A DNA stretch of 64,000 bases from a virus (IMGVR_UViG_3300027860_000004:32001-96000), one strand, 5' to 3'. Shown: positions 48,347 to 64,000, counted from the first letter of the stretch. Notes: generated by a model from the letters alone, not told the origin. Made by a program: numbers and translations.

Positions 48347-49015
48347 TTACTTATCGAATCCTGGCACGACCCATTCAATGTGGGCCGTGCGCGCTTGCTT
48401 TGATTCGTTGGGGGTCACGACGGCGTAGAGGGTGCCCGAATGGTCCGGCTGGTCGGAGACATAGATGCGACCCCCGTAGCGGGCACGAAGGGCGTTCGGC
48501 CCGTCGCTACGTGCGCCGCGCGTCACGGCATTGGGTTGATAGCGAATGAAGAGGGTTTCCTCCGAAGCCTGGGCCAAGCGCGCAGCCTGTTTGGCAGCAT
48601 ATTCGATGGCCTCGGTAAGGGCCTCCCCGTTGACGTCATCCTCCGTGACCAGGACCGGCATTTGGAGGAACCGTTGCTTTTGGGCCGGTTCACCGCAGGG
48701 GAGGATACCCTGGGCTTGAACCTCGGGGGATTCTTTAACTTCCGCTTCTTCCTTCTCGGTCATCGGACGGCGCAGGGCCGCGACGGCGATATATCCCGCC
48801 ACGGGGTCCCGGTCATACGCCTCGCGCATAAGTTTAACCATCCCGACCGAGGAAACGACCTCCTCAAAGGACCGGCGTAACTTCGCGCCACGGCCGGTCC
48901 GGTTCAGGGTGGCCTCATATGCTGCCCGCAGGGCGATGGTCATGTTCGTGACGCGAACGCCAAGCGCGACCTGTGCAGGGGTGGGGGCGGTGGTGACTTT
49001 TTGCATCGTTTCCAT
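48347..49015 (-). CDS. hypothetical early protein
   Basis: own promoter TTGACA-17-TATAAT-6-ATG. Confidence 0.8.
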   Translation of the reverse strand: METMQKVTTAPTPAQVALGVRVTNMTIALRAAYEATLNRTGRGAKLRRSFEEVVSSVGMVKLMREAYDRDPVAGYIAVAALRRPMTEKEEAEVKESPEVQAQGILPCGEPAQKQRFLQMPVLVTEDDVNGEALTEAIEYAAKQAARLAQASEETLFIRYQPNAVTRGARSDGPNALRARYGGRIYVSDQPDHSGTLYAVVTPNESKQARTAHIEWVVPGFDK

Positions 49016-49046
49016 GTTCTAATTATATCGAATTAGAAGGGTTATG

Positions 49047-49193
49047 TCAAACCGCTTGCGCGATATTGACGTAAGCGAAAGCAATCATTTTGCCTCGCGA
49101 ATTGTTGAGGGTCACTTGGAGGCACCCTTCGCCCCAGGGGGTAAAGGTGCAATAGTAGCCGCGCTTGATGGTGAAGTTCTTAAACGGTTCCAT
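49047..49193 (-). CDS. 48-aa protein MEPFKNFTIKRGYYC... (not in ORF track)
   Basis: TTGACA-17-TATAAT-6-ATG; TGA stop lies inside the next -35. Confidence 0.75.
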   Translation of the reverse strand: MEPFKNFTIKRGYYCTFTPWGEGCLQVTLNNSRGKMIAFAYVNIAQAV

Positions 49194-49229
49194 GTCCTGA
49201 TTATACAGAACAGAAGGGGTTATGTCAAA

Positions 49230-49297
49230 TACATTAAAAAGGGAATACCTCGCATTCTCACTTCCTTCGCCCTACGGCGGGAAGGGGACCAACCTTC
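49230..49297 (-). ncRNA. candidate ~70-nt small RNA
   Basis: consensus promoter 49304-49332, no start codon at +1, three hairpins then U5. Confidence 0.55.
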
Positions 49298-49328
49298 CCG
49301 CTTATTATAGAGTTAAAGGGTCGTTTTG

Positions 49329-49937
49329 TCAAATGGCCCCGCAGGGGTAATGGGTTGTCCTGGTCATCGGCGCGCACCCATAGGCGACCAGAACACCAGA
49401 GAAGGCCCGTTCTGAATCCGTTAGGCCATCCAAACCGATTTGGTGGGGTTTGCGGCGTCCTTTGTGTTGGCCCTCTTTGTAGGCCCGTTTTTGGGCCTTC
49501 TTGTCGATACGTTGGGCCGCAAGGTCCGCTTCCAATTCTGCAAGGTGGGCCGCTTCCTCCTGGTCCTCTTCGACGGGAGCGGTTTGGGGAGCGGGTTTGA
49601 CGGCGGACGCAATTTGACGAGAATACTTCGCCAATTTTCGGGCAACGAAGCGCGCTTGCTTCGGGGTTAAGGTTTGATACTTTTCGGAACCTTCCGCAAT
49701 ATCGGAGAGAATTTGCGCGTCGGTGCCATTGAACCCGGTTCCGTTATTATAGGCTGTCGCTTGGGCCATTTGTTCATCGGCCGTTTGGTTCGCATAAACG
49801 ACTCGGAGCGCGCGGTACGTTACCTTCCGTTGAAACGGGTTGATAAGGGTCGGTTCCGTTTGTGCAACTTCTTGCAGGAAGGATTTAATACCTTCTTGTG
49901 TTTTGAGGTCATGCACGGTCGTCGTCGTGTTATTCAT
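49329..49937 (-). CDS. conserved phage hypothetical protein
   Basis: QTADEQ..NG.GF...DA..L..LT.KQ..KY.RQ motif; leaderless promoter. Confidence 0.8.
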   Translation of the reverse strand: MNNTTTTVHDLKTQEGIKSFLQEVAQTEPTLINPFQRKVTYRALRVVYANQTADEQMAQATAYNNGTGFNGTDAQILSDIAEGSEKYQTLTPKQARFVARKLAKYSRQIASAVKPAPQTAPVEEDQEEAAHLAELEADLAAQRIDKKAQKRAYKEGQHKGRRKPHQIGLDGLTDSERAFSGVLVAYGCAPMTRTTHYPCGAI

Positions 49938-49974
49938 AACCTAATTATACATATTAGGTGGAGTTATTGCAAAT

Positions 49975-50295
49975 GAGGTTCCCCCAAAGTGACCAACCTC
50001 GGGAGAACCTCTTTGCGCCTAATCAATACACTTGAAGAGAGGTTTTGCTTTTCTTTCGTTTTTTCTTTCGTTAGTGTCTAACCTTGTCGGATTCGGCGCG
50101 CAGTTCGCCTATCTCATACATTCAAGGTTTAAGACTCTAGGTGATTCGCTTTCTCCTTTCTTTTGGAGGAGACTCGACAAGGGCCAAGGTTACTCAGGGG
50201 AGGTGAACGTATCCCGCTAGTTCCTTGTCTCTTTCAAACCCTTGTCGATATACGTCGTAGGTGTATTCCTACGTTCCGCTTTCTCCTACCCTTTA
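49975..50295 (-). ncRNA. candidate structured RNA in a ~320-nt gap without a convincing ORF
   Basis: nested inverted repeats 50167-50172/50282-50287, 50174-50183/50239-50248, 50256-50261/50268-50273. Confidence 0.45.
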
Positions 50296-50298
50296 AGT

Positions 50299-50568
50299 TT
50301 AATGCTTTTCGGGAGTTATGTCAAATGTCGAAGCGTAATACTTCTTTCCGACCGTATACGTTTCATAGGCGAGGCCATCGAAGTAATCGGCCAAGGAACA
50401 GAATCCTAGCCCGAAGTCTACAAGTAGCCAAAGGTCCGACTCCATGAAGTAAAGGCCCATACATTCGCAAATATCGCGCACGTACACTTCTCCGGTGAAG
50501 AGGAGACGGAGCGCATTGTTGATGAGAAGGAAGGTGATAACTTTGAAGAGGTCGCAGTAAAGTTTCAT
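50299..50568 (-). CDS. hypothetical protein (start moved to MKLYC)
   Basis: TTGACA-17-TATGCT-7-ATG. Confidence 0.7.
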   Translation of the reverse strand: MKLYCDLFKVITFLLINNALRLLFTGEVYVRDICECMGLYFMESDLWLLVDFGLGFCSLADYFDGLAYETYTVGKKYYASTFDITPEKH

Positions 50569-50611
50569 CTTCGTTAGCATACACCTTTCAATTTATTATG
50601 TCAAATGCCTT

Positions 50612-50776
50612 TTAGTCGGCAACCTTTACGCGAGCGTTGCGACGATGGTTCTTGTATTTGCCTTTCCCGCGCTTCTTATTGTAGGGGGAGTGCCAATCTT
50701 CGTGATACATCGTTCCGCGCTTGGTTTTGCGCGAGACTTCCAATTCGTAACGGAGGTTTGCTTCTCGAACATCCAT
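50612..50776 (-). CDS. 54-aa basic protein (not in ORF track)
   Basis: TTGCAT-17-TATACT-6-ATG; MDVREANL..NKKRGKGKYKNHRR. Confidence 0.75.
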   Translation of the reverse strand: MDVREANLRYELEVSRKTKRGTMYHEDWHSPYNKKRGKGKYKNHRRNARVKVAD

Positions 50777-50863
50777 GCGTTAAGTATAAACCTTCTTTTT
50801 AGTTAATGCAAACCAAGAGGAGGGGGTTCTATTTATTATAGTGCAAGAAAAGAGAAAGGACCC

Positions 50864-51175
50864 CTACCCTCGGGGGTCCGCTATTTCTCCCTTTTGGATG
50901 AGGTAGTCCGTCATTAGGTCCCCCGTAGACTTGAAGGGCGGAACATATGTCCGGTATGCTTCTCGACCCTCTTCCATCCAAGCGTCATAGCCATCTTGGT
51001 CGAGGATTGCATCGCATCGCATACAGGAGAGGAAACGGCCCTCATCGGTGGCATCATCACGCTTAATCGGTTTCTTCGGGTTGCCATACTCGAACTTTTC
51101 CATCGCGCAATCGACGCAGAGGCGTCTCTCGGATTGGTCGCTGTTGACTCGGTAGCCAACGATATCGTTTTCCAT
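50864..51175 (-). CDS. Zn-finger-like protein
   Basis: CVDC..CMRC; leaderless promoter. Confidence 0.75.
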   Translation of the reverse strand: MENDIVGYRVNSDQSERRLCVDCAMEKFEYGNPKKPIKRDDATDEGRFLSCMRCDAILDQDGYDAWMEEGREAYRTYVPPFKSTGDLMTDYLIQKGEIADPRG

Positions 51176-51211
51176 GTCCTAACTATACACCTAACTTTTG
51201 GTTATTGCAAG

Positions 51212-51463
51212 TTACCAATCGAATTTAGTGCAAACGGGGCCGCATTTTTCGCGACATTCTCCAGAAGCATAGTGGTGGCGAATATGTTCCGACCGTTTCG
51301 CTTCTCGTTGGGCCTCGCGTTGACGACGAACCTTCTCTGCTTGCGGGTCATAGGTCCGACCGAATCGGTTCACCGGGAGGGCACCGTTGGCGAGTTCATC
51401 ACACCGGAGGCATCCTTCAACCTTCTTACCGAAGTTCGGGCCGTGATTGTGTTGCGTTCCCAT
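51212..51463 (-). CDS. Cys/His-rich small protein
   Basis: H.H..CLRC..H..C..C..C; leaderless promoter. Confidence 0.75.
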   Translation of the reverse strand: MGTQHNHGPNFGKKVEGCLRCDELANGALPVNRFGRTYDPQAEKVRRQREAQREAKRSEHIRHHYASGECREKCGPVCTKFDW

Positions 51464-51489
51464 AACCCTATATTACATTTAATTAGGAG

Positions 51490-51765
51490 TTATGTCAAGG
51501 GATTTAGAAGTGCGAGAAGCCTTCTCAATTCCTTGATTTGTTCTTCTTTTGCTTCGATAGCCTTTTCCAGGGCCTTCTCGAACGCTAGGATGGCCTCTTC
51601 TCCATCGGTGTAGAAGTCTTTGCGCGCGACGGAGTAGACTGTTCCGCAGGCAATTCTCCGACCATTATCGCGAACCTGTGAAACAGTAACTTCCCGAAGG
51701 TAAGGAATACCTTCGTGGTTACTGTCGATAATGAAACCTTCGGTTCCTTTGCGAATATCTTCCAT
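51490..51765 (-). CDS. hypothetical protein
   Basis: leaderless promoter; ends TTG-ACA-TAA in the next -35. Confidence 0.75.
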   Translation of the reverse strand: MEDIRKGTEGFIIDSNHEGIPYLREVTVSQVRDNGRRIACGTVYSVARKDFYTDGEEAILAFEKALEKAIEAKEEQIKELRRLLALLNPLT

Positions 51766-51840
51766 CCTTTATATTTTAATTTAATCCCACAGTTATGTCA
51801 AGGAATAAGCCTATGATAAGTAGAAAGCAAAGAATGGAAT

Positions 51841-51873
51841 AGAGGAGGGCTTGAAAAGCGCCCTCCTCTTTTT
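51841..51873. terminator. terminator hairpin
   Basis: AGAGGAGGGC-N9-GCCCTCCTCT. Confidence 0.75.
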
Positions 51874-51875
51874 GG

Positions 51876-52055
51876 TTAATCACCTTCGGTTCCCGTTGCT
51901 TGCAGAAACCGTTCCCGGTTGAAACGGGGGTTCGTTATCGCCAACGAATCGGCGAAGGCAAGGGCCGCAGAACGTCGAGCGGAACGGAGACTTGCCGAAT
52001 GGGAAGGCATCCCTTTGATGGTGTCGGCAATCAGTTGAAAGTCTTTCTTCGTCAT
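51876..52055 (-). CDS. 59-aa conserved phage protein (not in ORF track)
   Basis: MTKKDFQLIA..NPRFNRERFL motif that I recognise from small phage proteins; TTGACA-17-TATAGT-6-ATG. Confidence 0.8.
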   Translation of the reverse strand: MTKKDFQLIADTIKGMPSHSASLRSARRSAALAFADSLAITNPRFNRERFLQATGTEGD

Positions 52056-52094
52056 GTGCTTACTATAAACCTATAACGAAGTTTTGTCAAAGAC

Positions 52095-52493
52095 TTACTT
52101 TCTCCGCTTGTTGTGATTTCCCCATCCCACAGTTTTCCAAGAATGAGGGAAAATTTCTTCAATGAACATAGCGACCTTAACAGGTATACCATACGAACGG
52201 TAGAGAGACTCCACTATGAGGGTTTGAAAGGTATCATGCCTTCCCCCTTCTCTTCCGTGATATACGTGGTCGATATAGTGCCCTAATTCGTGCAAGAGGG
52301 CCGCAGTATGTTCTGTCGTGGAACCATTTTTGCGGAAGTGTAGATAAATGATTTTGCTACGGGAAAAGTACCTTCCCGTATCTTTGTGGGCATCACGAAG
52401 CGAAGCAACTATGACCCGAGGAGCGGGTATGCCATAATCTTTACAGACTATGTTTGCATATTCTTGTGCCCATGTGGTCAAAGAAATGTTCAC
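52095..52493 (-). CDS. HExxH zincin-like metallopeptidase domain protein
   Basis: LLHELGH..H..H; GTG start 6 nt after TATACT. Confidence 0.7.
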   Translation of the reverse strand: MNISLTTWAQEYANIVCKDYGIPAPRVIVASLRDAHKDTGRYFSRSKIIYLHFRKNGSTTEHTAALLHELGHYIDHVYHGREGGRHDTFQTLIVESLYRSYGIPVKVAMFIEEIFPHSWKTVGWGNHNKRRK

Positions 52494-52601
52494 TTGATAA
52501 GTATAACCTTTTTTAAGTAGTTATGTCAAAGGCTTGTTCTCTTTAATTTATTATAGAGTAAAAGAAAGAGAGGCTCCCAGGGCAAGAACCTCCTCTTCGC
52601 T

Positions 52602-52859
52602 TTACTTTTTCTTGCCTTTCTTGGGTTCCATGTTGCGTTGACCCTTGGAGGCACGGATTTGTGCCCGCGTCATCTTCTTACGCTTGCGGGGTTGCTTGTC
52701 CACGGGGAGGGCCACAGGTGCCAGGATGGACAAACCCTGTTCCTCGGCGCGTTTATGCCCTTCCAGGACCCATTCGATATTGACCGGAACGGTGTTCGGA
52801 TTTTGCGAGAAGTTCTTCGCAGCGAAGGGGGCGAAGGTGGTCGTCATTTGCTGTTCCAT
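52602..52859 (-). CDS. protein with a highly basic C-terminal tail
   Basis: leaderless promoter. Confidence 0.7.
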   Translation of the reverse strand: MEQQMTTTFAPFAAKNFSQNPNTVPVNIEWVLEGHKRAEEQGLSILAPVALPVDKQPRKRKKMTRAQIRASKGQRNMEPKKGKKK

Positions 52860-52868
52860 GAATTAAGT

Positions 52869-53042
52869 TTATACCTTCTCGGAAGTTTTTGCAAGCGAAC
52901 CTTTGTTTTTATAGGCCGTTGTCCACTTGTGCCACTTGGTTCCAAAGTGTATCCCCATATGGTAGGAGACAACTCCACGATTTTGTTTCAACGCATGAGC
53001 ATAGCAGAAACGGTAAAGGCGTTGCTTCTGAAACTCTTTCAC
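52869..53042 (-). CDS. 57-aa basic protein (not in ORF track)
   Basis: TTGCTT-17-TAGAGT-6-GTG. Confidence 0.55.
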   Translation of the reverse strand: MKEFQKQRLYRFCYAHALKQNRGVVSYHMGIHFGTKWHKWTTAYKNKGSLAKTSEKV

Positions 53043-53139
53043 CTTCTTACTCTATCATAAACTGAAAGATAAAGCAAATATAGTTTTAAGATATTATAGC
53101 ATTAAAGGAAGAAAAGAACCCCCGGAGGGGGTCTAGTTG

Positions 53140-53166
53140 TTAGCCGAAAAGTTTGTCAAGTTTCAT
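53140..53166 (-). CDS. 8-codon minigene MKLDKLFG
   Basis: TTGCAA-17-TATAAT-6-ATG, then stop and terminator hairpin 53116-53133. Confidence 0.5.
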   Translation of the reverse strand: MKLDKLFG

Positions 53167-53201
53167 AACCTGATTATACCTTTTTGTTGATGTTATTGCA
53201 A

Positions 53202-53288
53202 ATGAGAGGAGTTTTCAATTAACGGGAAGAAAACTCTTAACAACTCCCGGCCTTTTCTGTGTCCCATTCGACCACGGGGGCCAACCTT
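53202..53288 (-). ncRNA. candidate ~90-nt structured RNA
   Basis: TTGACA-17-TATACT (53295-53323), no start codon at +1, GAGUUUUC/GAAAACUC stem. Confidence 0.5.
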
Positions 53289-53303
53289 AATTTAAGTATA
53301 AAA

Positions 53304-53483
53304 CTATTTGGTAGTTTTGTCAAACTTCCAGGTTGGCATGACTTCTTCGCGAGCCTGTTCTAGGCACAGGATGCACGTATATTCGTCCGCAACGATGCGA
53401 ACCGTATCCCGAGGGCGAAAGTCTGTTACCTTCGCACCACAACGAATTGATTCTGTTTTCTTGTCGAAAAGGTGGTTTAGCAT
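53304..53483 (-). CDS. small protein (H..CG..CxxC)
   Basis: ATG 53483 overlaps the upstream stop region. Confidence 0.55.
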   Translation of the reverse strand: MLNHLFDKKTESIRCGAKVTDFRPRDTVRIVADEYTCILCLEQAREEVMPTWKFDKTTK

Positions 53484-53752
53484 GAAAGTGCGAGAAGCCT
53501 TTCTTTCCAATCCGAGGAAAGTTTATCCCCTTCTGCTTTTTCTTGAAGAAGTTCGTACAGTTCGGGATAGGTAACATAATCCCGAGTATCACCTTCATCG
53601 GAGCAGAGAACCTCTACTGATTCACCTGCAACCGAATGAATCATGGGATTCGGTCCCATAAGAATTGAAACTTCCTTCCCATTCTCGAAAGAGATTACCG
53701 CATGACGTACACCACGCGAGGTCAAGAAGTGTGGTTTGATTTCAACTCTCAT
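53477..53752 (-). CDS. hypothetical protein
   Basis: TTGCAT-17-TATAAT-6-ATG. Confidence 0.75.
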   Translation of the reverse strand: MRVEIKPHFLTSRGVRHAVISFENGKEVSILMGPNPMIHSVAGESVEVLCSDEGDTRDYVTYPELYELLQEKAEGDKLSSDWKERLLALSC

Positions 53753-53838
53753 GCACTAATTATATCTTAAATTGAAAGATAATGCAAGAAGAAAAGAAGA
53801 AGCCTTGGGATGCTTGATTCCAAGGCTTTTCTAATATG

Positions 53839-54102
53839 TTATCCGTTATATTCGGAGAAACAACGCCCCTCGTCTAGTGCGACTTGATAGCGTTCGATGG
53901 ATTCGATACAACTTTCTAATTGTAGACGCGCCATCAGTAGGTCGCGATGAATCCCGCGATTATAGGATTTTTCGATGTTGACTTTATCAATAGTATCACA
54001 GGAATCATATCGCGCATGATACTCTTGAAGTTTGTTCTTCATCGCTTCTAATGAAGTGATTACATCAGAAGTGTTAAAGTTAGAAACCTTCGATTTAGCC
54101 AA
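53839..54102 (-). CDS. helical hypothetical protein (leadered exception)
   Basis: TTG start with AAGGAG SD; promoter 54160-54188. Confidence 0.65.
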   Translation of the reverse strand: MAKSKVSNFNTSDVITSLEAMKNKLQEYHARYDSCDTIDKVNIEKSYNRGIHRDLLMARLQLESCIESIERYQVALDEGRCFSEYNG

Positions 54103-54230
54103 AATTTTCTCCTTAGAAGAGTAAGCCCTAGAAGGGCAAAATTAGTTTTTACAAACCAAAACATATCAAATTACCAAAGTTATGTCAAATGTAGGTTGTT
54201 CTATATATAATAGTGTTGAAAATAAGAAGA

Positions 54231-54449
54231 AGGAGAGGTTAATTACTCCTCTCCTACTTTCCGCAAGGCGTCCCTTACTTGCCCGTTTTACATTCAGGTG
54301 GTGCCATACCTACACCATTCCGACAGGTGTTGTGGTTCTAAGTTTTTTAGTCCCTGGAAGTCAAACCCTAGACTTAAAAGCCTCCAGCGGGATTGTTTCC
54401 GTATCATCGCTTTTGTATCACGGTAAGGACGAACAATCAATTTCCTTAC
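54231..54449 (-). ncRNA. candidate ~200-nt structured transcript, or RBS-sequestered 48-aa ORF
   Basis: TTGACA-17-TATACT (54456-54484), several hairpins, terminator 54231-54255. Confidence 0.4.
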
Positions 54450-54549
54450 AACCAAAGTATATCAAAGCATTGAAGTTATGTCAAATGGAGTTTTATTCTA
54501 TGTATAATATACTTGAAAAGAGGAAGGGGAACCGGAGTTCCCCATTCTT

Positions 54550-54834
54550 CTACTTAATCCCGAGGCGGCGTTTGATTTCCGCTTTAACGAGGCGGGCTTG
54601 TTCGCCCTTGTAGGTGGTGGCGTTGGAGAGGAAATACATTCCAATGGACCGACCGGAGTCCGCACCATAGGCATCCTCGAATGAGGCCATATCGGACATG
54701 GCCTCTAAGTAGGGAACCGCACCGAAGTAGATTTTGGGCTTCCAGGACTTGCGAACGATATACGCAAGTTCGTTGACCGTCTTGCTTTTGAGTTCTTCCG
54801 CCGAAACGACGTTGTTGTTGTTGCTGATTTCCAT
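54550..54834 (-). CDS. conserved phage hypothetical protein
   Basis: W..YFGAVPYL.AM..YG.DS..YFLSNA..GE.AR.VK.E motif; leaderless promoter. Confidence 0.8.
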   Translation of the reverse strand: MEISNNNNVVSAEELKSKTVNELAYIVRKSWKPKIYFGAVPYLEAMSDMASFEDAYGADSGRSIGMYFLSNATTYKGEQARLVKAEIKRRLGIK

Positions 54835-54908
54835 AAACCTATTATACCTTTCGATAGAAGTTATTGCAAGAAAAAGAGCCTATCAGATTTCCGATAGACT
54901 CTCCAGAC

Positions 54909-57303: not shown

Positions 57304-57391
57304 ACTTCTATTATCAACCTTTAGGGTAGTTTTGTCAAAAATTATTCAATTTATTATAGCATAAGAAAAGAAAGAGGGCCAAAGCCCCCTT

Positions 57392-57595
57392 TTAGTCCGG
57401 GTCGTACTCTTCCCCAGGCGCTTCGTCGTGCATATAGCGCATGACTTCAACATCTTCGACCTCCGCGAATTTGATTCGAGGAGTCTGCTTATATGCGGCG
57501 TCCCGAATCTCATCAATATCGGGGTTCGCATTATCCAGATTAACTTGATATTTGCGAACCTCCGTAACAGTTTCTGTTAGAACGAACAGGGGCAT
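57392..57595 (-). CDS. small acidic protein (start MPLFVL)
   Basis: AGAGGAGG SD. Confidence 0.65.
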   Translation of the reverse strand: MPLFVLTETVTEVRKYQVNLDNANPDIDEIRDAAYKQTPRIKFAEVEDVEVMRYMHDEAPGEEYDPD

Positions 57596-57777
57596 CCGTA
57601 GTCCTCCTCTTCTTCCCATTCTTCATAGTCGATATTCTCGTCAAAGAAGTCCTCTTCTTCGACAAATTCGCCATTCGCTTCGGAAGCGAGGCAGTTTTCC
57701 TCGAAACGGATGGCATCCCCGAAGGGCATCGAGTCGTAGGGGTCGTAAGATTCGTAACCGCTGTAATCTTCATCCAT
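57577..57777 (-). CDS. extremely acidic 66-aa protein, DNA-mimic candidate
   Basis: D/E- and aromatic-rich; TTGCAG-17-TATAAT-6-ATG. Confidence 0.7.
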   Translation of the reverse strand: MDEDYSGYESYDPYDSMPFGDAIRFEENCLASEANGEFVEEEDFFDENIDYEEWEEEEDYGCPCSF

Positions 57778-57799
57778 AAACTAATTATAGACCTTCTCT

Positions 57800-57982
57800 T
57801 TAGTTACTGCAAGCGGAGAGAGGATACCAACGGCCACCATCTTTCCCTCCGCTTGCATGATAGCGAGGCAACTGCGGGACGCAGAAGATTTCCCCTTCCC
57901 GCTTCTTGGTAACGTAGCAAGGAACGTCTTTCAAGCGACCACGACGAGGTGTAGCGGCCTGAAGAAGGTTGGCATCTTTCAA
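57800..57982 (-). CDS. small hypothetical protein
   Basis: overlaps the upstream stop; ends in the next promoter. Confidence 0.5.
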   Translation of the reverse strand: MKDANLLQAATPRRGRLKDVPCYVTKKREGEIFCVPQLPRYHASGGKDGGRWYPLSACSN

Positions 57983-58230
57983 CTAATCCACACCTTGTAG
58001 GCATCGGCAAGGTCGTAAAGATAGTCGAGCGAATCATTAAAGTCATCTACCGACCCATTTACAGATGACTTGTAAAAATCGTTTGATAAGTCCGTAGTGT
58101 CAAGAACATTGAAAGGTGAATTTACTCGAAGCCTTTCCATGATTTGATTTGCAGCGGCCTTGACTGAATCTTCATCTTCAGAAGTGTCAAGAAGGTCTTT
58201 GATTTGGAATTGAGACAGCCATTTACCCAT
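57979..58230 (-). CDS. acidic protein (start MGKW)
   Basis: GGAGA SD; DF...LD.LYDLAD...VWI. Confidence 0.7.
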   Translation of the reverse strand: MGKWLSQFQIKDLLDTSEDEDSVKAAANQIMERLRVNSPFNVLDTTDLSNDFYKSSVNGSVDDFNDSLDYLYDLADAYKVWIS

Positions 58231-58231
58231 A

Positions 58232-58408
58232 TTATTTCTCCAGCAAAGCGACAAGGAACCCATGTTGATAGATGAAGGGTAAATTATCGAAGAGAGCCTT
58301 CTGGTTCTTCGTTGCCAGGGAGAGAGCAAACTCCTTCGCCTTGTTATAGGCGCTCAACTCCACAAAGGAGGAGGTCAAAAGTTCTTTCGCTTCATCTTTC
58401 GTCATCAT
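58232..58408 (-). CDS. 58-aa protein MMTKDEAKELL... (not in ORF track)
   Basis: TTGACA-17-TATACT-6-ATG. Confidence 0.7.
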   Translation of the reverse strand: MMTKDEAKELLTSSFVELSAYNKAKEFALSLATKNQKALFDNLPFIYQHGFLVALLEK

Positions 58409-58434
58409 GCTCTAAGTATAAACTTATTGCGGAG

Positions 58435-58650
58435 TTATGTCAAAGGAAGCGGAATTGTAGACTCGAACCAAACTTCTTTGTCGTAATCATTATACGTGAT
58501 TTTAACATGGCTGTATTCTACGGCATGGCGATGAATAAGATTTTTCGCAAGATTCAATGCGCCTTGCTTTGAGTCCCGAGTCCAGAATTGGACTTGTGCG
58601 GGATATTCACGTAGGGTTGCAATGATGACAAATGGTTCGGTATACTTCAT
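58435..58650 (-). CDS. hypothetical protein
   Basis: TGGACA-17-TATATT-6-ATG; ends TTG-ACA-TAA. Confidence 0.7.
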   Translation of the reverse strand: MKYTEPFVIIATLREYPAQVQFWTRDSKQGALNLAKNLIHRHAVEYSHVKITYNDYDKEVWFESTIPLPLT

Positions 58651-58665
58651 GCTATGAATATAAAC

Positions 58666-58935
58666 CTATTCAGGAGTTTTGTCCAACAATGGGAGGAAAG
58701 AAACGATATTCTTTCTTAATTTATCATAAACAACTCGAACAGTCTGACCCTGCCATTCGAGCGTATGAATAGTGACCCGATTTGATTGGGTCACAACATT
58801 TTGACTTCGACCGGACATAATATGACGCTTTAATTCTATCATATTTTGATGGTTGAAGTCAATTCCGTAACGCTCCAATGCCCTCCGCTTGGCATGTTTA
58901 CGTTGGCACTTCCCTTTGCTAACTCGCTTTCCCAT
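58666..58935 (-). CDS. basic protein, possible RelE/DUF4258-like fold
   Basis: HAKRRALERY..VVYDK..IVSF. Confidence 0.5.
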   Translation of the reverse strand: MGKRVSKGKCQRKHAKRRALERYGIDFNHQNMIELKRHIMSGRSQNVVTQSNRVTIHTLEWQGQTVRVVYDKLRKNIVSFLPLLDKTPE

Positions 58936-58957
58936 TATTGTTGTTCCCTTAAATAAT

Positions 58958-59045
58958 TGGTGGGGAAGGTGGGACTCGAACCCACATGAGATTTCTCCCG
59001 TCGCGTTTTAAGCGCGATGCTTCTGACCAATTTAGCCACTTCCCC
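58958..59045 (-). tRNA. trnL: tRNA-Leu(UAA)
   Basis: GGGGAAG/CTTCCCC acceptor, TCGCG-CTTAAAA-CGCGA anticodon arm, long variable arm, GTGGG-TTCGAGT-CCCAC T arm, encoded CCA. Confidence 0.95.
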
Positions 59046-59448
59046 GAATAGATGGATGACTATAATATCCTCCGCATTTTCGAGAACAATAATTTTCTTT
59101 TGTTACTTTATTTTTTTGTCTGTCTTGGCGCTCACGTTGACTAACTTCTGCTTGAAACTCTTTTCCGCAAGGGCAAGTATATGTTTTATATTTTCTTTGC
59201 CTTCCGTGGTCAACCCAAACGGATTTTCTTCTATTTTCTATTCCGCTCAAAACTTGCAAGTTCGACAGTTCATTGTTTCTTATGTTTCCATCCTTGTGGT
59301 CAACTTCTTCCCAATCCTCAAGTTTCCTTCCTAATGCTTCTTCCATGAGGTAACGAGGATAAGAAATAGTTATCAGGGATTTATCGTCTAATTGCTTGAC
59401 AATTCTGCTTCTGCCGTCCTTGGCAGTATATGGTCCGTATATCTTCAT
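59032..59448 (-). CDS. HNH homing-endonuclease-like protein
   Basis: RY.ME..LGR.L...EEVDHKDG...NN..SNLQV, C-terminal CPCGK..YCSRKC; AAGAGG SD. Confidence 0.85.
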   Translation of the reverse strand: MKIYGPYTAKDGRSRIVKQLDDKSLITISYPRYLMEEALGRKLEDWEEVDHKDGNIRNNELSNLQVLSGIENRRKSVWVDHGRQRKYKTYTCPCGKEFQAEVSQRERQDRQKNKVTKENYCSRKCGGYYSHPSIRGSG

Positions 59449-59485
59449 GGCTAACAACCTCTTTGTTAACCATTATATTAAAAAG

Positions 59486-59728
59486 TTATTTGGTTCGACC
59501 AGCAATAGCCTCTACATAATTTTCAAGGCAACGACGAGTATGATATTCTGGATTTTTGTTATTAAATTGACTGTAGTAATTCAACAGCCCTTGCTTTTGA
59601 CTGTCACCTGGTTTAACTGTAACAGTAAACTCGTTAAACACAAATGAAACCGGATTGCCTAGCCGGTTTGCAAACTCGCGAGCATATTCAACTGCTCCGT
59701 TAATATGATGAATGCTGTTTATTGACAT
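59486..59728 (-). CDS. hypothetical protein
   Basis: TTGCAA-17-TAGAAT-6-ATG. Confidence 0.75.
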   Translation of the reverse strand: MSINSIHHINGAVEYAREFANRLGNPVSFVFNEFTVTVKPGDSQKQGLLNYYSQFNNKNPEYHTRRCLENYVEAIAGRTK

Positions 59729-59771
59729 ACTCCTATTCTATCAACTTTCTTTAGTTATTGCAAAAAAATGA

Positions 59772-60002
59772 CTAAAGAGGACCAGAACCTAAAAAGTAGT
59801 CCTCTTCCTCTTCTTCATCTTCTTCTACGGCGAAGGTGGCACTCAGTCCTGGATGACTTGTGCTAATAGTGTTATAGCGTTCTTCGGTAAGCCGAACCTC
59901 GCGTTCATAGATAGCAGAAGCGATGCGCGCAAGGCTACGTCCGTCGCTATGTTCGATACGTTGCACCAAGTCACGAATGAGGTCCTCGCGTTCAATCTTC
60001 AT
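59772..60002 (-). CDS. acidic-tailed protein
   Basis: TTGCAA-17-TAAAAT-6-ATG. Confidence 0.75.
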   Translation of the reverse strand: MKIEREDLIRDLVQRIEHSDGRSLARIASAIYEREVRLTEERYNTISTSHPGLSATFAVEEDEEEEEDYFLGSGPL

Positions 60003-60087
60003 GACCTTATTTTATCAACTAATTGGAGTTCTTGCAACTCATACTATTTATTATATAACTAAAAGAAAAAAGGAGGACGAACCTCCT

Positions 60088-60384
60088 TTAGACAGGGAAT
60101 CGAGGAAGAGGTTTTTCGGTTTGAGGGCTTGCTTTGAGAAACTCTACGTGCCCCTTTAGGTCCTCTGCTGCCTTCAAGTAATCACCACGCTTATACTTGC
60201 GGCCGGTGTATTCTGAAGCCATCTTGAGCATTTGAACAGGTCCAACGCCTCGGGTCGGAATCATCTTCAACTTTGCATAGCCGATGAGACTTTGTGCCAG
60301 GATAGCGGCCCGGAAAATATCCACATCCCCTTTGGCAAGGACTCGGCCGTTGTGGGTGCGTTCGGCAAATGATTGATTATCCAT
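60088..60384 (-). CDS. phage hypothetical protein
   Basis: TG.KYKRG.Y..A..DL; TTGCAA-17-TAATAT-6-ATG. Confidence 0.75.
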   Translation of the reverse strand: MDNQSFAERTHNGRVLAKGDVDIFRAAILAQSLIGYAKLKMIPTRGVGPVQMLKMASEYTGRKYKRGDYLKAAEDLKGHVEFLKASPQTEKPLPRFPV

Positions 60385-60449
60385 GACTTTATATTATCAA
60401 CTTTAAGAAGATATTGCAAGTCATTTTATTATTTATTATATCATTATTC

Positions 60450-60672
60450 CACAACGAGGACCGGCGCTAGGCTCGGCCCTCCTTGGGATAACGCGCTAGG
60501 TCCCGGATTTGAACCGGAAACGCCACCTATTTGCTTAGGTCCGAACCTAGATGAAGTAAGAGGATGCTCGCACAACTTTTATATGCTGCCGGTCAAGAGA
60601 GTCTTATCTCTCACGCTTTGTTTAGGCGGTCCTACTTGTCCACCTACCTAGAACCTTAGTTTGTCACTCTGT
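60450..60672 (-). ncRNA. tRNA/tmRNA-like structured RNA
   Basis: TTGACA-17-TATAAT (60679-60707), CUAGGU/ACCUAG closing stem, UCCGG-UUCAAAU-CCGGG T arm. Confidence 0.6.
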
Positions 60673-60713
60673 GATTAGATTATATCTTCTTGAAGAAGTT
60701 TTGTCAAAACCCT

Positions 60714-60902
60714 TTAGTTAGAAGGGTCAACAGATTGGAGTCTAAAGGACCGTGCGGCTTCACGCATTTCGGCAAGCATATTCTCTGCTTCACGATAGTC
60801 GCTAGGTCCTGGCGCATCCTTTGTATGGTCGCCAAGGATAACTTCAAGGGCAGCAATACGGTTCGGCGTGACCTTTACTGTTGCTTGGTTAGAAGTATCC
60901 AT
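60714..60902 (-). CDS. small hypothetical protein
   Basis: second cistron. Confidence 0.55.
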   Translation of the reverse strand: MDTSNQATVKVTPNRIAALEVILGDHTKDAPGPSDYREAENMLAEMREAARSFRLQSVDPSN

Positions 60903-60907
60903 TATTT

Positions 60908-61327
60908 TTAGATGGTTGCCTTGAAAGAAACCAGGTTGTAAGAGTAGGGCGAGTTCTTGACCAACTCTTCATATTGCGGACGAGTAAGGATACCCGCAGC
61001 AAGAAACTTTTTGGCGACCTCTACATCGGCCGTAAGTTTCTCGGGAACCTCCACAAAGTTAATCTTGAAGTTCCCCCGCTTGTTACGGAAGGTGCCGGAA
61101 ATGAAGGTTTCTTTGTTCTCACCCAGGGCCTTGCGAATGGCCTTAATCTTGGGCTTGAGGTCTTTCTCCAACTTCGTTTCCGCAGCGGATTTCAGTTCGG
61201 AGGTAAGGATATAGTCCCGAAGAACGGCAACGATTTCGGTTTGCGTATCTTCGGTAAGTGCGGTGACACCTTCTGCGGTCACGGGCACGATGACTGTTTG
61301 GGCGTTTTCGAGAAGTGTGTTGCTCAT
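60908..61327 (-). CDS. hypothetical protein
   Basis: TTGCAA-17-TATAGT-6-ATG. Confidence 0.8.
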   Translation of the reverse strand: MSNTLLENAQTVIVPVTAEGVTALTEDTQTEIVAVLRDYILTSELKSAAETKLEKDLKPKIKAIRKALGENKETFISGTFRNKRGNFKINFVEVPEKLTADVEVAKKFLAAGILTRPQYEELVKNSPYSYNLVSFKATI

Positions 61328-61397
61328 GTATAAACTATAGACCTTTCAGAGAGTTATTGCAAGCAGCGGTTGTACCCGCTTTGCCTACGGTGAAGCG

Positions 61398-61426
61398 AGT
61401 ATAACATATAAAAAACAAAAAGTCAA
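61398..61426 (-). promoter_or_regulatory. extra tandem promoter without an adjacent start codon
   Basis: TTGACT-17-TATACT followed by an AGCGG/CCGCT hairpin. Confidence 0.6.
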
Positions 61427-61473
61427 GTGCATTCTATTTATTATAGCGTTGAATAAAGAAAAAGGAGGATTTT

Positions 61474-61686
61474 TTATTTCCCCTTCTTCTCCTGTTGAAG
61501 AAAATAGTTAATGACTTCTGCTACCCGATACTTATGATTGACCCAGGTAATAGTCTCTCTGAAGATAATTTGATACCCTGCGGGGTATTCTACGATGACA
61601 AGGTTTGCATTATCAGTAGGTAAACCTGCTTTAGCAAACTCTTGCTTGATATAGTTTTTTGAGAATTTTACTTGACTAGGATTCAT
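61474..61686 (-). CDS. hypothetical protein (start MNPSQV)
   Basis: overlaps the upstream stop. Confidence 0.55.
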   Translation of the reverse strand: MNPSQVKFSKNYIKQEFAKAGLPTDNANLVIVEYPAGYQIIFRETITWVNHKYRVAEVINYFLQQEKKGK

Positions 61687-61909
61687 TGACAGTAGAAGGT
61701 AGAACGATTCGACCATCCCCCACGGCTTCGACCAGCGTGGCAAACATTTCGTTAGATGCCTTCTGTCGGTCAAGGTGACGCTGCCACGATTCCTGAAAGG
61801 CTTTGCTTTCTGCATCGCGATAACCTTTTCGATACTCAGCATCGAGCATTTCATCGAGTTCCGATTGCTTCATCATAACAATCGGGTTTTTGTCTGTGTG
61901 AATAAGCAT
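61676..61909 (-). CDS. hypothetical protein
   Basis: TTGACT-17-TATAAA-6-ATG. Confidence 0.7.
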   Translation of the reverse strand: MLIHTDKNPIVMMKQSELDEMLDAEYRKGYRDAESKAFQESWQRHLDRQKASNEMFATLVEAVGDGRIVLPSTVNES

Positions 61910-61935
61910 ATTCTATTTATAGACCTTTCAAGGAG

Positions 61936-62304
61936 TTAAGTCAAATCTCCATCATGCCCGACAGTAAACATGACAATCTCAAACATATCACGGGCTTTGA
62001 TTGCTTTAATTGCTTCGCGTTCTCCTGTGTCGAACCAAATGCAAACCGGAAAAGTTTGTGGAACCTCCATCAAACAATCAAGTAATTCCCCAACGGTCAA
62101 GGCTTGGCTTTCATCGGCCGGTTCTTCATCATAGAGGGGAGGTTCAATCGACTGAGCATTGATTGTAACCATTGACAAAGACGGCGAACCCTCTACAGTT
62201 TCATAAGAAACATTTGTAAAGAAAGAACCATCATCCACCCGGCATTCAAACTCCGGGTTAGTGTAGAGATTGCGAAGCGTTTCTCGCAGTTCGCTAACTT
62301 TCAT
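61936..62304 (-). CDS. acidic protein (start MKVSEL)
   Basis: TAATG coupling; internal repeat MKVSEL/LTVGEL. Confidence 0.7.
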   Translation of the reverse strand: MKVSELRETLRNLYTNPEFECRVDDGSFFTNVSYETVEGSPSLSMVTINAQSIEPPLYDEEPADESQALTVGELLDCLMEVPQTFPVCIWFDTGEREAIKAIKARDMFEIVMFTVGHDGDLT

Positions 62305-62495
62305 TAGCCTTGCAGAACCCCCAAGGTGCCGCAGCCCTTGCAAATATCATCCGGTTCTGGGGGATGACCAAAGTCCTCGAAAAACATTTCGATTGCTTCT
62401 GGGTCATAGTCAAGAGTGATTGTGTTAATCACTTGTCCCTGGTTTTCGCATCCCTTGGTTTCACAAACCACAGAGAAAGTCACTTCTTCTAGCAT
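62304..62495 (-). CDS. small Zn-ribbon-like acidic protein
   Basis: C...GC.N..CKGCG; TTGCAA-17-TAGAAT-6-ATG. Confidence 0.7.
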   Translation of the reverse strand: MLEEVTFSVVCETKGCENQGQVINTITLDYDPEAIEMFFEDFGHPPEPDDICKGCGTLGVLQG

Positions 62496-62521
62496 GACCT
62501 TATTCTATCAATCTTAAAGAG

Positions 62522-62713
62522 TTATTGCAAATAAGGAGGCGGAGTTAGTCCCCGCTTGTGAAGCAATCCCAATTCGTTTAGAACCGCAATAGCAGTAGCC
62601 TGCATCCGATACTCATTCCAATCCTTAAAATCAAGTCGATTCTGCGGGGTGCTATTGCGAATGGCTCTCGCAGTTCGTTCGATAAGGGCAACTTCTTCAT
62701 CGGTATAATCCAT
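62522..62713 (-). CDS. hypothetical protein
   Basis: TTGCAA-17-TATAAT-9-ATG; ends TTG-CAA-TAA. Confidence 0.7.
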   Translation of the reverse strand: MDYTDEEVALIERTARAIRNSTPQNRLDFKDWNEYRMQATAIAVLNELGLLHKRGLTPPPYLQ

Positions 62714-62798
62714 AGTCAAAACATTATATCAAGAATTAGAAGTTATTGCAAGGGTTGTTATTCAATTTATAATAGAGTAATAGTAAAAAAAGAGGCCC

Positions 62799-63293
62799 TT
62801 AGAAGGCCCCTGGGGTTAGTTGAGACTTCACAGGTGCATATACTACAACCTGTTCATTTCCGACCATTCCAAGGCGATTCTTGACCGCTTGGGATACATC
62901 TATGATTCGATGCGTCCATAGGTTTGGTCCTCTATCTTCTACTTTACAAGTAGCATACTTATGGGTCTTTACATTCTTGATAATGACCCGAGTATGAAGA
63001 GGGAAGTACCAGGAAGCGCACATATTTTTGTGGGTATCGAATATGATTCCTGAAGCAGTAGGCTTCCCTTGTGTATTGTCATCCCCCCAAGGGCATAGAT
63101 TGCGGTTTCCGGCGCATCCATACCAAGAGGCTTCACCGCGAGCCTGTTGACGAAAGTGATTGTTTTGCTGCCCATGATGAGCAGCAATTCGTCGCGTATG
63201 CTTTAGGTGAGATTGTTCACTTCGCGGATGTTCTGTGCATCCGAAGAGGGAGACTCCAATCAATATGATTGAAAGATAAACTCTTTTCGTCAT
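62799..63293 (-). CDS. RlpA-like double-psi beta-barrel lipoprotein (lytic-transglycosylase-like)
   Basis: lipobox-like LFGC, GEASWYG, TASG..FD, VEDRGP, RIIDVS. Confidence 0.85.
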   Translation of the reverse strand: MTKRVYLSIILIGVSLFGCTEHPRSEQSHLKHTRRIAAHHGQQNNHFRQQARGEASWYGCAGNRNLCPWGDDNTQGKPTASGIIFDTHKNMCASWYFPLHTRVIIKNVKTHKYATCKVEDRGPNLWTHRIIDVSQAVKNRLGMVGNEQVVVYAPVKSQLTPGAF

Positions 63294-63329
63294 GAATTAA
63301 GTTTATCATCTTCAATCAGTTAAATCAAA

Positions 63330-63485
63330 TTATTGCTGATATATTACTACTACGGGAGTATGTCCCGGAACAGGGTGATACTGAGAAAGACTTGCATCTT
63401 GCTTCAGCATTAACATAACACCCCAGAGAATGATAAGTCCGGTGACTCCACATTGAACTAGAATACCTGCAAGTTTTCTATTCAT
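63330..63485 (-). CDS. 51-aa single-TM protein (not in ORF track)
   Basis: MNRKLAGILVQCGVTGLIILWGVMLML...; abuts the upstream stop. Confidence 0.55.
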   Translation of the reverse strand: MNRKLAGILVQCGVTGLIILWGVMLMLKQDASLSQYHPVPGHTPVVVIYQQ

Positions 63486-63486
63486 G

Positions 63487-63687
63487 TCAAAAGCGCCCGT
63501 GATAATGCTTTTCCACTCGCGTAATCAACTTGACGCGCTGACCATCCTGGGTCATTTCTTTTTCTTGTTCGGACCAAGCAGGACGAGATTCACCAATGAT
63601 ACAATCCGTGCAACCGCAATCGCTTGGGTCAATATATTCGGTCGTTTCCTCAAAATAAAGGACCACACTTCTACGCTTATTATTCAT
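63487..63687 (-). CDS. small protein with CGCTDC motif
   Basis: AGAGGAGG SD before ATG 63687. Confidence 0.65.
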   Translation of the reverse strand: MNNKRRSVVLYFEETTEYIDPSDCGCTDCIIGESRPAWSEQEKEMTQDGQRVKLITRVEKHYHGRF

Positions 63688-63692
63688 GATTA

Positions 63693-63965
63693 TTAAACCT
63701 CCTCTTTTTCCAAAGATTTTTGAGATTGTAGCCATTTTTGATATTCGTGGTGACTATCATTAATGCCCCAATGACGTTTGAGGTCACGATAATTATGCCC
63801 TGTGCGAAAGCCTTGGTCAACTAATTGTTGTAAGATATTAGCGCGCATCTTACAAATGTCGCAATCAAGACCCCAATCACAAGAACTAAGTCCTACAAAT
63901 AAACTATCTGTAATGTGTGAGGCTTCTCGGTCGCTAAGATTTAATTGAATGTTCTTCTTTTCCAT
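63693..63965 (-). CDS. hypothetical protein
   Basis: TTGCAA-17-TATAAT-6-ATG. Confidence 0.75.
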   Translation of the reverse strand: MEKKNIQLNLSDREASHITDSLFVGLSSCDWGLDCDICKMRANILQQLVDQGFRTGHNYRDLKRHWGINDSHHEYQKWLQSQKSLEKEEV

Positions 63966-64000
63966 ACAAAGATTATATCGAAATCTTTTAGTTATTGCAA

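Follow-up and report, generated by a model that had tools for sequence, protein, structure and literature searches.

Some 50 small genes on one strand of a large virus each appear to be served by a promoter of their own, with the start codon set so close behind it that no ribosome-binding site would fit; how, then, would such genes be transcribed, translated and exchanged? The question is raised by IMGVR_UViG_3300027860_000004:32001-96000, a stretch of 64,000 nucleotides (bases 32001-96000 of a linear virus record of 130,281 bp in IMG/VR, CheckV completeness 78%) from an uncultivated large myovirus in a moss-derived record. This stretch is referred to as the window, and coordinates are those of the window unless they are marked as genome coordinates. 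From 48347 to 64000, its minus strand carries a repeated promoter motif, which the original prediction had read as an array of 39 self-contained promoter cassettes producing leaderless mRNAs; the sequence analysis partly supports that interpretation. In the explanation that we regard as the probable one, the array is an early-gene region composed of promoter-plus-AUG units that give leaderless mRNAs and are shuffled by recombination at their promoters, and the late genes are led by Shine-Dalgarno (SD) sequences.

An array of putative sigma70-type promoters on one strand

The window contains 40 copies of the motif between 48347 and 64000; the array had been recognized correctly, and the earlier count was short by one weaker copy at 61426. 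The spacer between the -35 and -10 hexamers is 17 bp in 39 copies and 18 bp in one (promoter 52529), as had been described. The array was also expected to continue past the window edge, and it does: approximately 73 minus-strand copies are spread over 46 kb (genome 80347-126328), about one per 630 bp. The whole array is about three times longer than its portion in the window, which is the promoter-distal third.

A scan of the 130-kb genome with a 29-nt position weight matrix (PWM) at a threshold of ≥10 bits returned 75 minus-strand and 5 plus-strand matches, compared with a mean of 2.6 matches in 20 Markov-1 shuffles, a comparison that is partly circular because the PWM was built from 45 of the sites it scores. 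Given that 73 of the 75 matches lie within genome 81050-126328, with one outlying match at genome 62322, the motif is not genome-wide, nor is it equally common elsewhere. The non-circular pattern TTG-N20-TANNNT-N6-ATG found 46 matches on the minus and 4 on the plus strand, compared with 0 and 1 for a reversed-pattern control, and a general promoter scan of window 48000-64000 found 65 sites, compared with 24.0 ± 5.5 in shuffled sequences.

The 46 sites of the non-circular set, which were defined solely by TTG, TANNNT and ATG, yielded the consensus (T/C)TTG(C/A)(A/C)A(T/A)AACT, approximately 10 variable bases, (T)G n, TAtAAT, 6-nt spacer, pyrimidine (Y), ATG, purine. The -35 hexamer opens with an invariant TTG followed by CAA or ACA, TTGCAA being about as frequent as TTGACA. 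The best copies match the sigma70 consensus at 6/6 positions of the -35 hexamer and at up to 12/12 positions over both hexamers. The -10 hexamer reads TAnnnT in 37 of the 40 window copies, the others being GATAAT, TATAAA and TATATT (58685; the last also fits TAnnnT), and a TG precedes it in about half of the copies (G in 27/46). By their -35, spacer and -10, the array sites would be sigma70-type promoters, and it is from these elements that we infer promoter activity. No conserved stem-loop was found within or beside the promoter columns. For the 40 window promoters there are 14 distinct terminator-like sites on the minus strand, about 10 of them at the ends of open reading frames (ORFs); the cassettes are therefore self-contained in that each has its own promoter, but most lack a terminator-like hairpin.

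Start codons placed for predicted leaderless transcripts

All 33 start codons of the original list were found again at the same positions. In the window, the start lies 6 nt after the -10 hexamer in 30 copies, 7 nt after it in two (51765 and 50568) and 9 nt after it in one (62713). The 30 starts at 6 nt comprise 27 ATGs that open ORFs of 48-222 amino acids (aa), one ATG with an 8-codon ORF (53166) and two GTGs (53042 and 52493). Over the whole array, offset 6 carries an ATG in 45 of the 73 promoters, and any other offset from 0 to 39 does so in at most six.

The base at -1 of the ATG is a pyrimidine in 43/43 sites of the PWM set and in 44/46 sites of the non-circular set, with A at +1. The preferred start of bacterial RNA polymerase is a purine that follows a pyrimidine and lies 7 nt beyond the -10 element; taken together, the 6-nt spacing and the Y-1/A+1 pair would place +1 on the A of the ATG, so the proposal that transcription begins at this A fits the sequence. 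There is no room for an SD sequence, as only 6 nt separate the -10 from the ATG and the bases upstream are the promoter itself. The ATGs open ORFs of 48-299 aa in 44 of the 46 cases, and an alternative SD-led in-frame start within 30 codons was present in just 2 of these 44 ORFs.

The N-termini of homologues of two early proteins lie within 0-3 residues of the predicted starts. For the 222-aa protein (48347-49015), a homologue at 93% identity has the same start and one at 42% identity begins opposite the 4th residue of the protein; homologues of the 140-aa protein (56650-57072) start at its first or second methionine. In addition, for three other putatively leaderless ORFs, located outside the window, the alignments to Pfam and PHROG profiles begin at residues 4-13.

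We propose the following course of expression. On entry of the DNA, the host primary-sigma holoenzyme would fire the ~73 promoters, and ~50 transcripts would begin with pppAUG and be translated from the 5' end without SD pairing. Leaderless mRNAs are translated by 70S ribosomes, or by 30S subunits with IF2 and initiator tRNA, and IF3 opposes this route. A 38-bp promoter-plus-AUG unit would then express any ORF placed after it. Because a leaderless mRNA is translatable solely from its 5'-terminal AUG and read-through RNA would offer no usable SD, each gene would require a private promoter, which would account for the promoter density. The 46-kb one-strand region is accordingly described here as a putative early or host-takeover region.

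SD sequences in second cistrons and late genes

Normal SD sites or translational coupling had been described for most second cistrons and for the late genes, and this is borne out. Within the array, second cistrons either have GAGGAGG, AAGGAG, AAGAGG or GGAG in front of them at the usual distance or share bases with the stop codon of the preceding gene, and an SD core stands before the candidate start of 39/71 late ORFs, compared with 9/71 in a control window. SD sequences are thus clearly in use by the phage as well as its host, and their absence before ~50 genes is a property of the array. The further suggestion that the array allows escape from a block on SD-dependent initiation is not favoured for a block that lasts, given that the phage's own late genes depend on SD sequences. 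A late-promoter motif common to 29 upstream regions was not found, the candidate GCGTA..TATA occurring just four times.

Gain, loss and exchange of cassettes among related strains

Contigs of four sequencing runs were compared over window 46001-64000. One strain (X2) is near-identical; three others (X3, X4 and X6), mostly 85-97% identical, differ in segments the size of genes. At the 48-aa ORF, X4 carries 374 other letters in place of the body (49048-49191), with a joint from 49047 to 49192; the break falls exactly between the ATG and the following promoter's -35, an element that overlaps the stop codon of the ORF. In X6, one complete cassette is missing between the -35 elements at 58685 and 58443 (joint from 58441 to 58687). 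The SD-led ORFs 57979-58230 and 60714-60902 are missing in both X3 and X6, the second deletion ending at the -35 of promoter 60707, and larger replacements between strains occupy 50327-50733, 51911-52474 and 61696-62300.

Joint endpoints fall at most 4 nt from a -35 start or a leaderless ATG in 6 of 24 cases, compared with 1.0 expected (P ~2e-4, 10,000 draws), a statistic whose weight is reduced by its sample, the 12 same-strand joints listed inside the region, 12 further joints lying outside that sample. The set omits one joint outside the region and two opposite-strand rows. The relatives are not fully syntenic, and the anticipated gain and loss of cassettes with breakpoints at the motif is in agreement with these joints. 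The strain differences therefore support cassette turnover by gain, loss and swapping, with breakpoints that probably favour the promoter copies, and we infer that recombination at promoters produced these differences: copies of the unit would serve as recombination homology, by which ORFs of diverse origin would be gained, lost and swapped between strains. The comparison gives no demonstration of cassette reordering.

Alternative explanations

Several observations weigh against an array of leaderless genes driven by the host polymerase, in addition to the restricted sample of joints. No adjacent start is present in 7 of the 40 window promoters (61426, 60707, 54484, 54188, 53323, 50324 and 49332), and about 19 of the 73 promoters overall either have no adjacent start or have a short ORF only. 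With ORF-end hairpins in about 10 of 40 cases, most ORFs would also be contained in read-through RNA without a usable SD. Four to five conserved bases after the -35 hexamer are unaccounted for by sigma70 recognition, and a phage factor may be needed. In the 6-nt spacer, A at -5 (23/43) and G at -4 (24/43) are enriched, which could be a very short-spaced SD remnant and not a discriminator. Among the relatives found, none is distant enough to test the conservation of the 6-nt spacing, and the ribosomes of the host may or may not translate leaderless mRNA well.

The conserved bases after the -35 hexamer bear most directly on a first alternative, which we consider unlikely, namely that the promoters are real but factor-gated or middle-type, with AACT as the site of a phage activator, a sigma-appropriating factor or a repressor. 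Positions 8-11, directly behind the hexamer, are A in 42, A in 38, C in 45 and T in 38 of the 46 sites, which goes beyond the needs of the hexamer, and this AACT may be a regulator site; the frequency of TTGCAA relative to TTGACA also speaks for gating, and a MotA box is found near -30 in T4 middle promoters. However, the primary-sigma consensus is matched unaided by TTG, the 17-bp spacer, TAtAAT and, in roughly half of the copies, the TG, and the 130 kb of this 78% complete record yielded no gene for a sigma factor, an anti-sigma factor or RNA polymerase.

A second alternative, that the mRNAs are short-leadered and not leaderless, appears distinctly improbable. Translation would then proceed from read-through RNA or from slightly upstream transcription starts, with the AGG-rich spacer acting as a minimal SD. 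The small share of cassettes that end in a terminator-like hairpin is compatible with this, as is the enrichment at -5 and -4, which puts AGG or AAGG 2-4 nt before the ATG, and seven promoters overall place the ATG at 7-10 nt. However, an SD core with its end just 1-3 nt from the AUG leaves too little distance for the 30S subunit to bind, and the true second cistrons of the array have long SD cores at normal spacing. The sharp 6-nt peak and the all-pyrimidine -1 position are features of start-site choice, not of ribosome binding, and leaders of 4-14 nt are described as absent altogether in a Lactococcus study (PMC10986495).

The composition of the record could suggest that a GC-rich array and an AT-rich remainder from two phages were mis-assembled, in which case the contrasts between early and late genes would be artefactual. 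GC is ~0.30 up to window 48000, where it steps from 0.27 to 0.52, and then 0.41-0.48 until the window end; the GC-rich stretch of the whole record extends from genome 80 kb to ~122 kb, the array and the GC-rich region both end at the last cassette (48314-49050), and among the listed X2 contigs none is shown to span the junction. Nevertheless, X2 shows depth in every bin across the junction, and promoters of the same consensus occur in AT-rich DNA at genome 116852-126328 as well as at genome 62322. Toward the far end of the array, GC declines gradually, with no step, and the tRNAs of the array for UUA and AGA match codons that are used mainly by the AT-rich late genes. Mis-assembly is therefore very unlikely. 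Finally, the strain breakpoints at the repeats would also be expected of DNA-level recombination, packaging or replication sites that merely resemble promoters, but their strict orientation, two hexamers at 17 bp with up to full sigma70 agreement, the fixed distance to in-frame starts and the position between ORFs make this reading hardly credible.

Comparison with known systems

The array of leaderless promoter-plus-AUG units that we favour has its closest counterpart in the early-promoter/stem-loop elements (PeSL) of phages RB49 and phi1. As described by Arbiol et al. (2010, PMC2839356; see also Comeau et al. 2014, PMC4122927), these are ~52 sigma70-like early promoters per genome, located in plastic regions before ORFans, which mediate indels and replacements. 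As in those accounts, about 50 repeated sigma70-consensus early promoters precede ORFans in plastic regions here, and the repeats form the borders of insertions, deletions and replacements that distinguish close relatives. However, the PeSL presented there has a stem-loop terminator and ends in an SD and a start codon, whereas the array has no SD, leader or conserved stem-loop, with a terminator in about a quarter of the cassettes. The PeSL phages are of T4 type, whereas the present virus has a capsid of the phage G-like lineage, and its extended -35 motif differs. Excised mini-circles did not appear in the contigs, which is no proof that they are absent. The array works like PeSL but is not one.

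A second parallel is offered by the leaderless transcripts of the Thermus phage phiYS40 (Sevostyanova et al. 2007). According to a review, its middle and late transcripts are leaderless (PMC3594737); both are large AT-rich myoviruses, and the present one, like phiYS40, would rely on the host RNA polymerase and make one whole temporal class of mRNA leaderless. A link to the control of translation initiation is proposed for phiYS40. In contrast to phiYS40, whose leaderless class comes from -10-only promoters, the putative leaderless class of the present virus has full -35/-10 promoters and looks early, and its late structural genes are SD-led. No protein similarity to Thermus phages was found in the phage-collection searches.

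Promoters that abut a gene are known in bacteria as well. In Deinococcus-Thermus, a promoter -10 abutting the ORF is described as common (PMC12340547), and the -10 is described as serving both as promoter and for the translation start, with a -35 placed 17 bp upstream strengthening it (PMC12340547, PMC4351075, PMC10986495). Two to three SigA-like promoters of cluster O mycobacteriophages are predicted to yield leaderless mRNAs (PMC4351075), and ~13% of the mRNAs of Lactococcus cremoris are reported as leaderless (PMC10986495). As in the leaderless genes of Deinococcus-Thermus, Actinobacteria and Lactococcus covered by these sources, TANNNT is fixed a few bases before the start; unlike the scattered genes of those hosts or the few per phage, ~50 lie here in a single array and share a near-identical promoter. 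The papers found by a limited literature search reported no phage-wide class of leaderless early genes.

Dense early clusters are also found in other phages: the host-takeover module of SPO1 and the early clusters of T4 and T5 consist of small genes of unknown function in one direction with many strong host-sigma promoters, but their early genes have SD-led starts and fewer promoters than genes. The array resembles them as a dense one-direction cluster of small early genes with many host-sigma-type promoters and differs in lacking SD-led starts and in having about one promoter per gene.

We also searched for similar arrays. The exact promoter-plus-ATG pattern gave 6 single matches in IMG/VR and at least 113 single matches in metagenome contigs, with no locus of more than two PWM matches among the matches listed from either. 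The perfect consensus TTGACA-17-TATAAT-6-ATG occurs at ≥123 IMG/VR loci, with a maximum of 3 per contig among the 80 loci listed. No close protein relatives of the portal or of the 222-aa early protein were found in IMG/VR. In 25 capsid-related IMG/VR records (41-77% identity), chosen from the best 80 of 398 capsid matches, the bare pattern matched 0-12 times per strand, compared with 0-5 for controls; the records show neither an excess of the pattern nor an array. Bacillus phage G has one match to TTGMMA-N17-TANNNT-N6-ATG in 497 kb. Nothing comparable to the array is present among the matches listed, and uniqueness is not claimed. The richest contig listed, an unrelated IMG/VR record of 21,755 bp, shows the arrangement on a small scale: four consensus promoters share a strand, and an ATG follows each -10 at 6 nt.

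Leaderless mRNAs in phages are usually single cases, such as lambda cI; otherwise, they are known from a few promoters in mycobacteriophages or as a trait of certain host phyla. The array offers ~50 natural candidate leaderless units in which nearly the same promoter precedes unrelated coding sequences, beside SD-led genes in one and the same genome. Should the start sites be confirmed, these units would be a ready-made series on what makes a 5'-terminal AUG work and a test of initiation mode as a timing device in phages. If the explanation is true, promoter-bounded shuffling would operate with a unit smaller than PeSL that needs no ribosome-binding site, and the promoter-plus-AUG unit could be a compact expression part.

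Cargo, codon usage and a possible translational switch

Nearly all cassette products are ORFans. Pfam matches at E ≤0.01 were obtained for 5 of the 45 window proteins, three of which reached the curated cut-off (HNH, DPBB and, marginally, the L7/L12 C-terminal domain), and 8 of 68 early proteins matched a PHROG. An all-versus-all comparison of 192 minus-strand ORFs from genome 80000-130281 found as paralogues only one pair of DPBB proteins (genome 116447-115953 and 95293-94799, with 40% identity across 101 residues) and a family at genome 125.6-129.5 kb; with near-no paralogues, the promoters are alike and the cargo is unrelated. The DPBB proteins are RlpA-like, and the window copy (62799-63293, minus strand) has a lipoprotein-type signal peptide and a leaderless start.

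The GC content at third codon positions (GC3) ranges from 0.21 to 0.72 among cassettes, rising toward the 48347 end, compared with 0.166 ± 0.045 in 65 late ORFs; this mosaic fits a cargo of mixed origin. Codon usage was compared between early ORFs of genome 80347-126293 and late ORFs of genome 1-80000. In 44 leaderless ORFs, GC3 is 0.45, and TTA makes up 16% of Leu, AGA 10% of Arg and ATA 10% of Ile codons, whereas in 44 long late ORFs, GC3 is 0.15 and the respective values are 57%, 43% and 24%. On its minus strand, the array also contains the genes of three tRNAs, Leu(TAA), Arg(TCT) and Met(CAT). The CAT tRNA could be an AUA reader, and tRNAs made early may render the AT3-rich late genes readable.

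In the 140-aa protein encoded at 56650-57072 (minus strand), residues 43-108 resemble the C-terminal domain of bL12 (26.2 bits in Pfam, where the cut-off is 25.9; matches to PDB sequences at E 0.002-0.04). Its homologues are all relatives at 82-86% identity, and a structure model with a mean pLDDT of 45 was not used. The bL12 C-terminal domain contacts translation GTPases. A tentative extension of the explanation is that the programme of the phage is split by initiation mode, with ~50 early leaderless genes, SD-led AT3-rich late genes made readable by the array tRNAs, and the bL12-like protein acting on initiation or elongation factors; the result would be an early-to-late translational switch, the mirror image of phiYS40. 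A portable unit that captures any foreign ORF without a ribosome-binding site would, under such a switch, lead to the observed GC3 mosaic.

Features of the array in the window

The promoter copies of the window and the units that they head are collected in Table 1.

Table 1. Promoter copies, cassettes and tRNA gene of the array, in window coordinates; all are on the minus strand
Element	Extent	Promoter	Start and distance from -10	Product or content	Remarks
Cassette	63693-64000	64000-63972 (TTGCAATAAC-17-TATAAT)	ATG 63965, 6 nt	90 aa	
Cassette	62799-63328	63328	ATG 63293, 6 nt	164 aa, lipoprotein-like DPBB	Hairpin 62811-62791, terminator-like
Cassette	62522-62751	62751	ATG 62713, 9 nt	63 aa	
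Cassette	62304-62530	62530	ATG 62495, 6 nt	63 aa	Then coupled ORF 61936-62307
Cassette	61676-61944	61944 (-10 TATAAA)	ATG 61909, 6 nt	77 aa	
Weaker promoter copy	61398-61426	61426	No adjacent start		64 nt upstream of promoter 61362
Cassette	60908-61362	61362	ATG 61327, 6 nt	139 aa	
Promoter unit	60445-60707	60707		~230 nt without ORF	May be a non-coding RNA; unmatched in Rfam, fold z -1.9
Cassette	60088-60419	60419	ATG 60384, 6 nt	98 aa	Hairpin 60089-60069
Cassette	59772-60037	60037	ATG 60002, 6 nt	76 aa	
Cassette	59486-59763	59763	ATG 59728, 6 nt	80 aa	Then SD-led HNH endonuclease ORF 59032-59448
tRNA-Leu	58958-59045			Anticodon TAA	Within early array
Cassette	58435-58685	58685 (TGGACA)	ATG 58650, 6 nt	71 aa	Missing in relative X6
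Cassette	58232-58443	58443	ATG 58408, 6 nt	58 aa	Then SD-led ORF 57979-58230
Cassette	57577-57812	57812	ATG 57777, 6 nt	66 aa	
Cassette	57118-57338	57338 (-10 GATAAT)	ATG 57303, 6 nt	61 aa	
Cassette	56650-57107	57107	ATG 57072, 6 nt	140 aa	Segment like bL12 C-terminal domain
Cassette	56320-56579	56579	ATG 56544, 6 nt	74 aa	
Cassette	55967-56319	56319	ATG 56284, 6 nt	105 aa	
Cassette	55621-55886	55886	ATG 55851, 6 nt	76 aa	
Cassette	55383-55618	55618	ATG 55583, 6 nt	66 aa	Then SD-led ORF 55121-55378
Cassette	54550-54869	54869	ATG 54834, 6 nt	94 aa	Hairpin 54543-54526
Promoter unit	54190-54484	54484		~260 nt without ORF	Hairpin and T-run at end
Leadered exception	53839-54188	54188	TTG 54102	87 aa	57-nt leader, SD AAGGAG
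Cassette	53477-53787	53787	ATG 53752, 6 nt	91 aa	
Promoter unit	53205-53323	53323		~90 nt without ORF	
Promoter unit	53117-53201	53201	ATG 53166, 6 nt	8-codon mini-ORF	Then hairpin 53133-53117
Cassette	52869-53077	53077	GTG 53042, 6 nt	57 aa	
Cassette	52602-52894	52894	ATG 52859, 6 nt	85 aa	Hairpin 52593-52569
Cassette	52095-52529	52529	GTG 52493, 6 nt	132 aa	Sole 18-bp spacer
Cassette	51876-52090	52090	ATG 52055, 6 nt	59 aa	
Cassette	51490-51801	51801	ATG 51765, 7 nt	91 aa	
Cassette	51212-51498	51498	ATG 51463, 6 nt	83 aa	
Cassette	50864-51210	51210	ATG 51175, 6 nt	103 aa	Hairpin 50879-50858
Cassette	50612-50811	50811	ATG 50776, 6 nt	54 aa	
Cassette	50299-50604	50604	ATG 50568, 7 nt	89 aa	
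Promoter unit	49975-50324	50324		~300 nt without ORF	
Cassette	49329-49972	49972	ATG 49937, 6 nt	202 aa	
Promoter unit	49226-49332	49332		~75 nt without ORF	T-run at end
Cassette	49047-49228	49228	ATG 49193, 6 nt	48 aa	Stop TGA inside next -35 (TTGACA)
Last cassette	48314-49050	49050	ATG 49015, 6 nt	222 aa, GC 0.62	Hairpin 48337-48314

The five ORF-free promoter units (60707, 54484, 53323, 50324 and 49332), some of which end in a hairpin or T-run, may encode small RNAs. An Rfam search of 48000-64000 matched tRNA alone, ARAGORN gave no match for these units, and the fold z-scores of three of the ORF-free promoter-driven stretches were -1.9, -1.2 and -0.1; no structured RNA is therefore claimed. 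The 60707 unit holds a string resembling a tRNA T-loop; relative X6 has other sequence in place of 178 nt of the unit. The micro-ORF at 53140-53166 (minus strand) encodes MKLDKLFG and is followed by a strong hairpin and a T-run; this unit could produce a micropeptide or a short RNA. The HNH ORF (59032-59448, minus strand) overlaps the 5' end of tRNA-Leu by 14 nt, and contigs of the relatives have loose ends at 58911-58990, indicating that the HNH/tRNA-Leu spot varies among strains.

Genome surroundings

In a search of sequencing runs, the sequence was present in six DNA runs (moss and soil metagenomes) and in zero RNA runs. Window 1-48000 contains late and DNA-metabolism genes of myovirus type, among which the major head protein, portal, large terminase and RNA ligase were identified; tail sheath and tail lysin genes adjoin the window on its upstream side. 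The head protein and portal share 50.7% and 38.6% identity, respectively, with those of Bacillus phage G, and more distant head and portal matches are to myoviruses of Mycobacterium, Rhodococcus and Gordonia. A host search with the capsid against GTDB contigs led to four metagenome-assembled bins from phyla unrelated to one another, and the taxa recorded for one early protein gave no pointer to a host.

An AT-rich paralogue block (genome 125607-129533, minus strand) lies upstream of the first array promoter; it comprises four members with identities of 27-43% and another pair at 36%, with overlapping gene ends, and no array-type promoter occurs among its genes. In the 783-aa large terminase (18850-21201, minus strand), Hint/intein-like matches at residues 282-464, below the Pfam cut-offs, suggest an intein inside the protein. 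Two T5orf172/GIY-YIG-like genes lie side by side on the plus strand (35650-35994 and 36200-36595), and two AlkB-like 2OG-Fe(II) oxygenases are encoded in separate parts of the genome (window 37286-37945, plus strand, and genome 11884-12441, minus strand).

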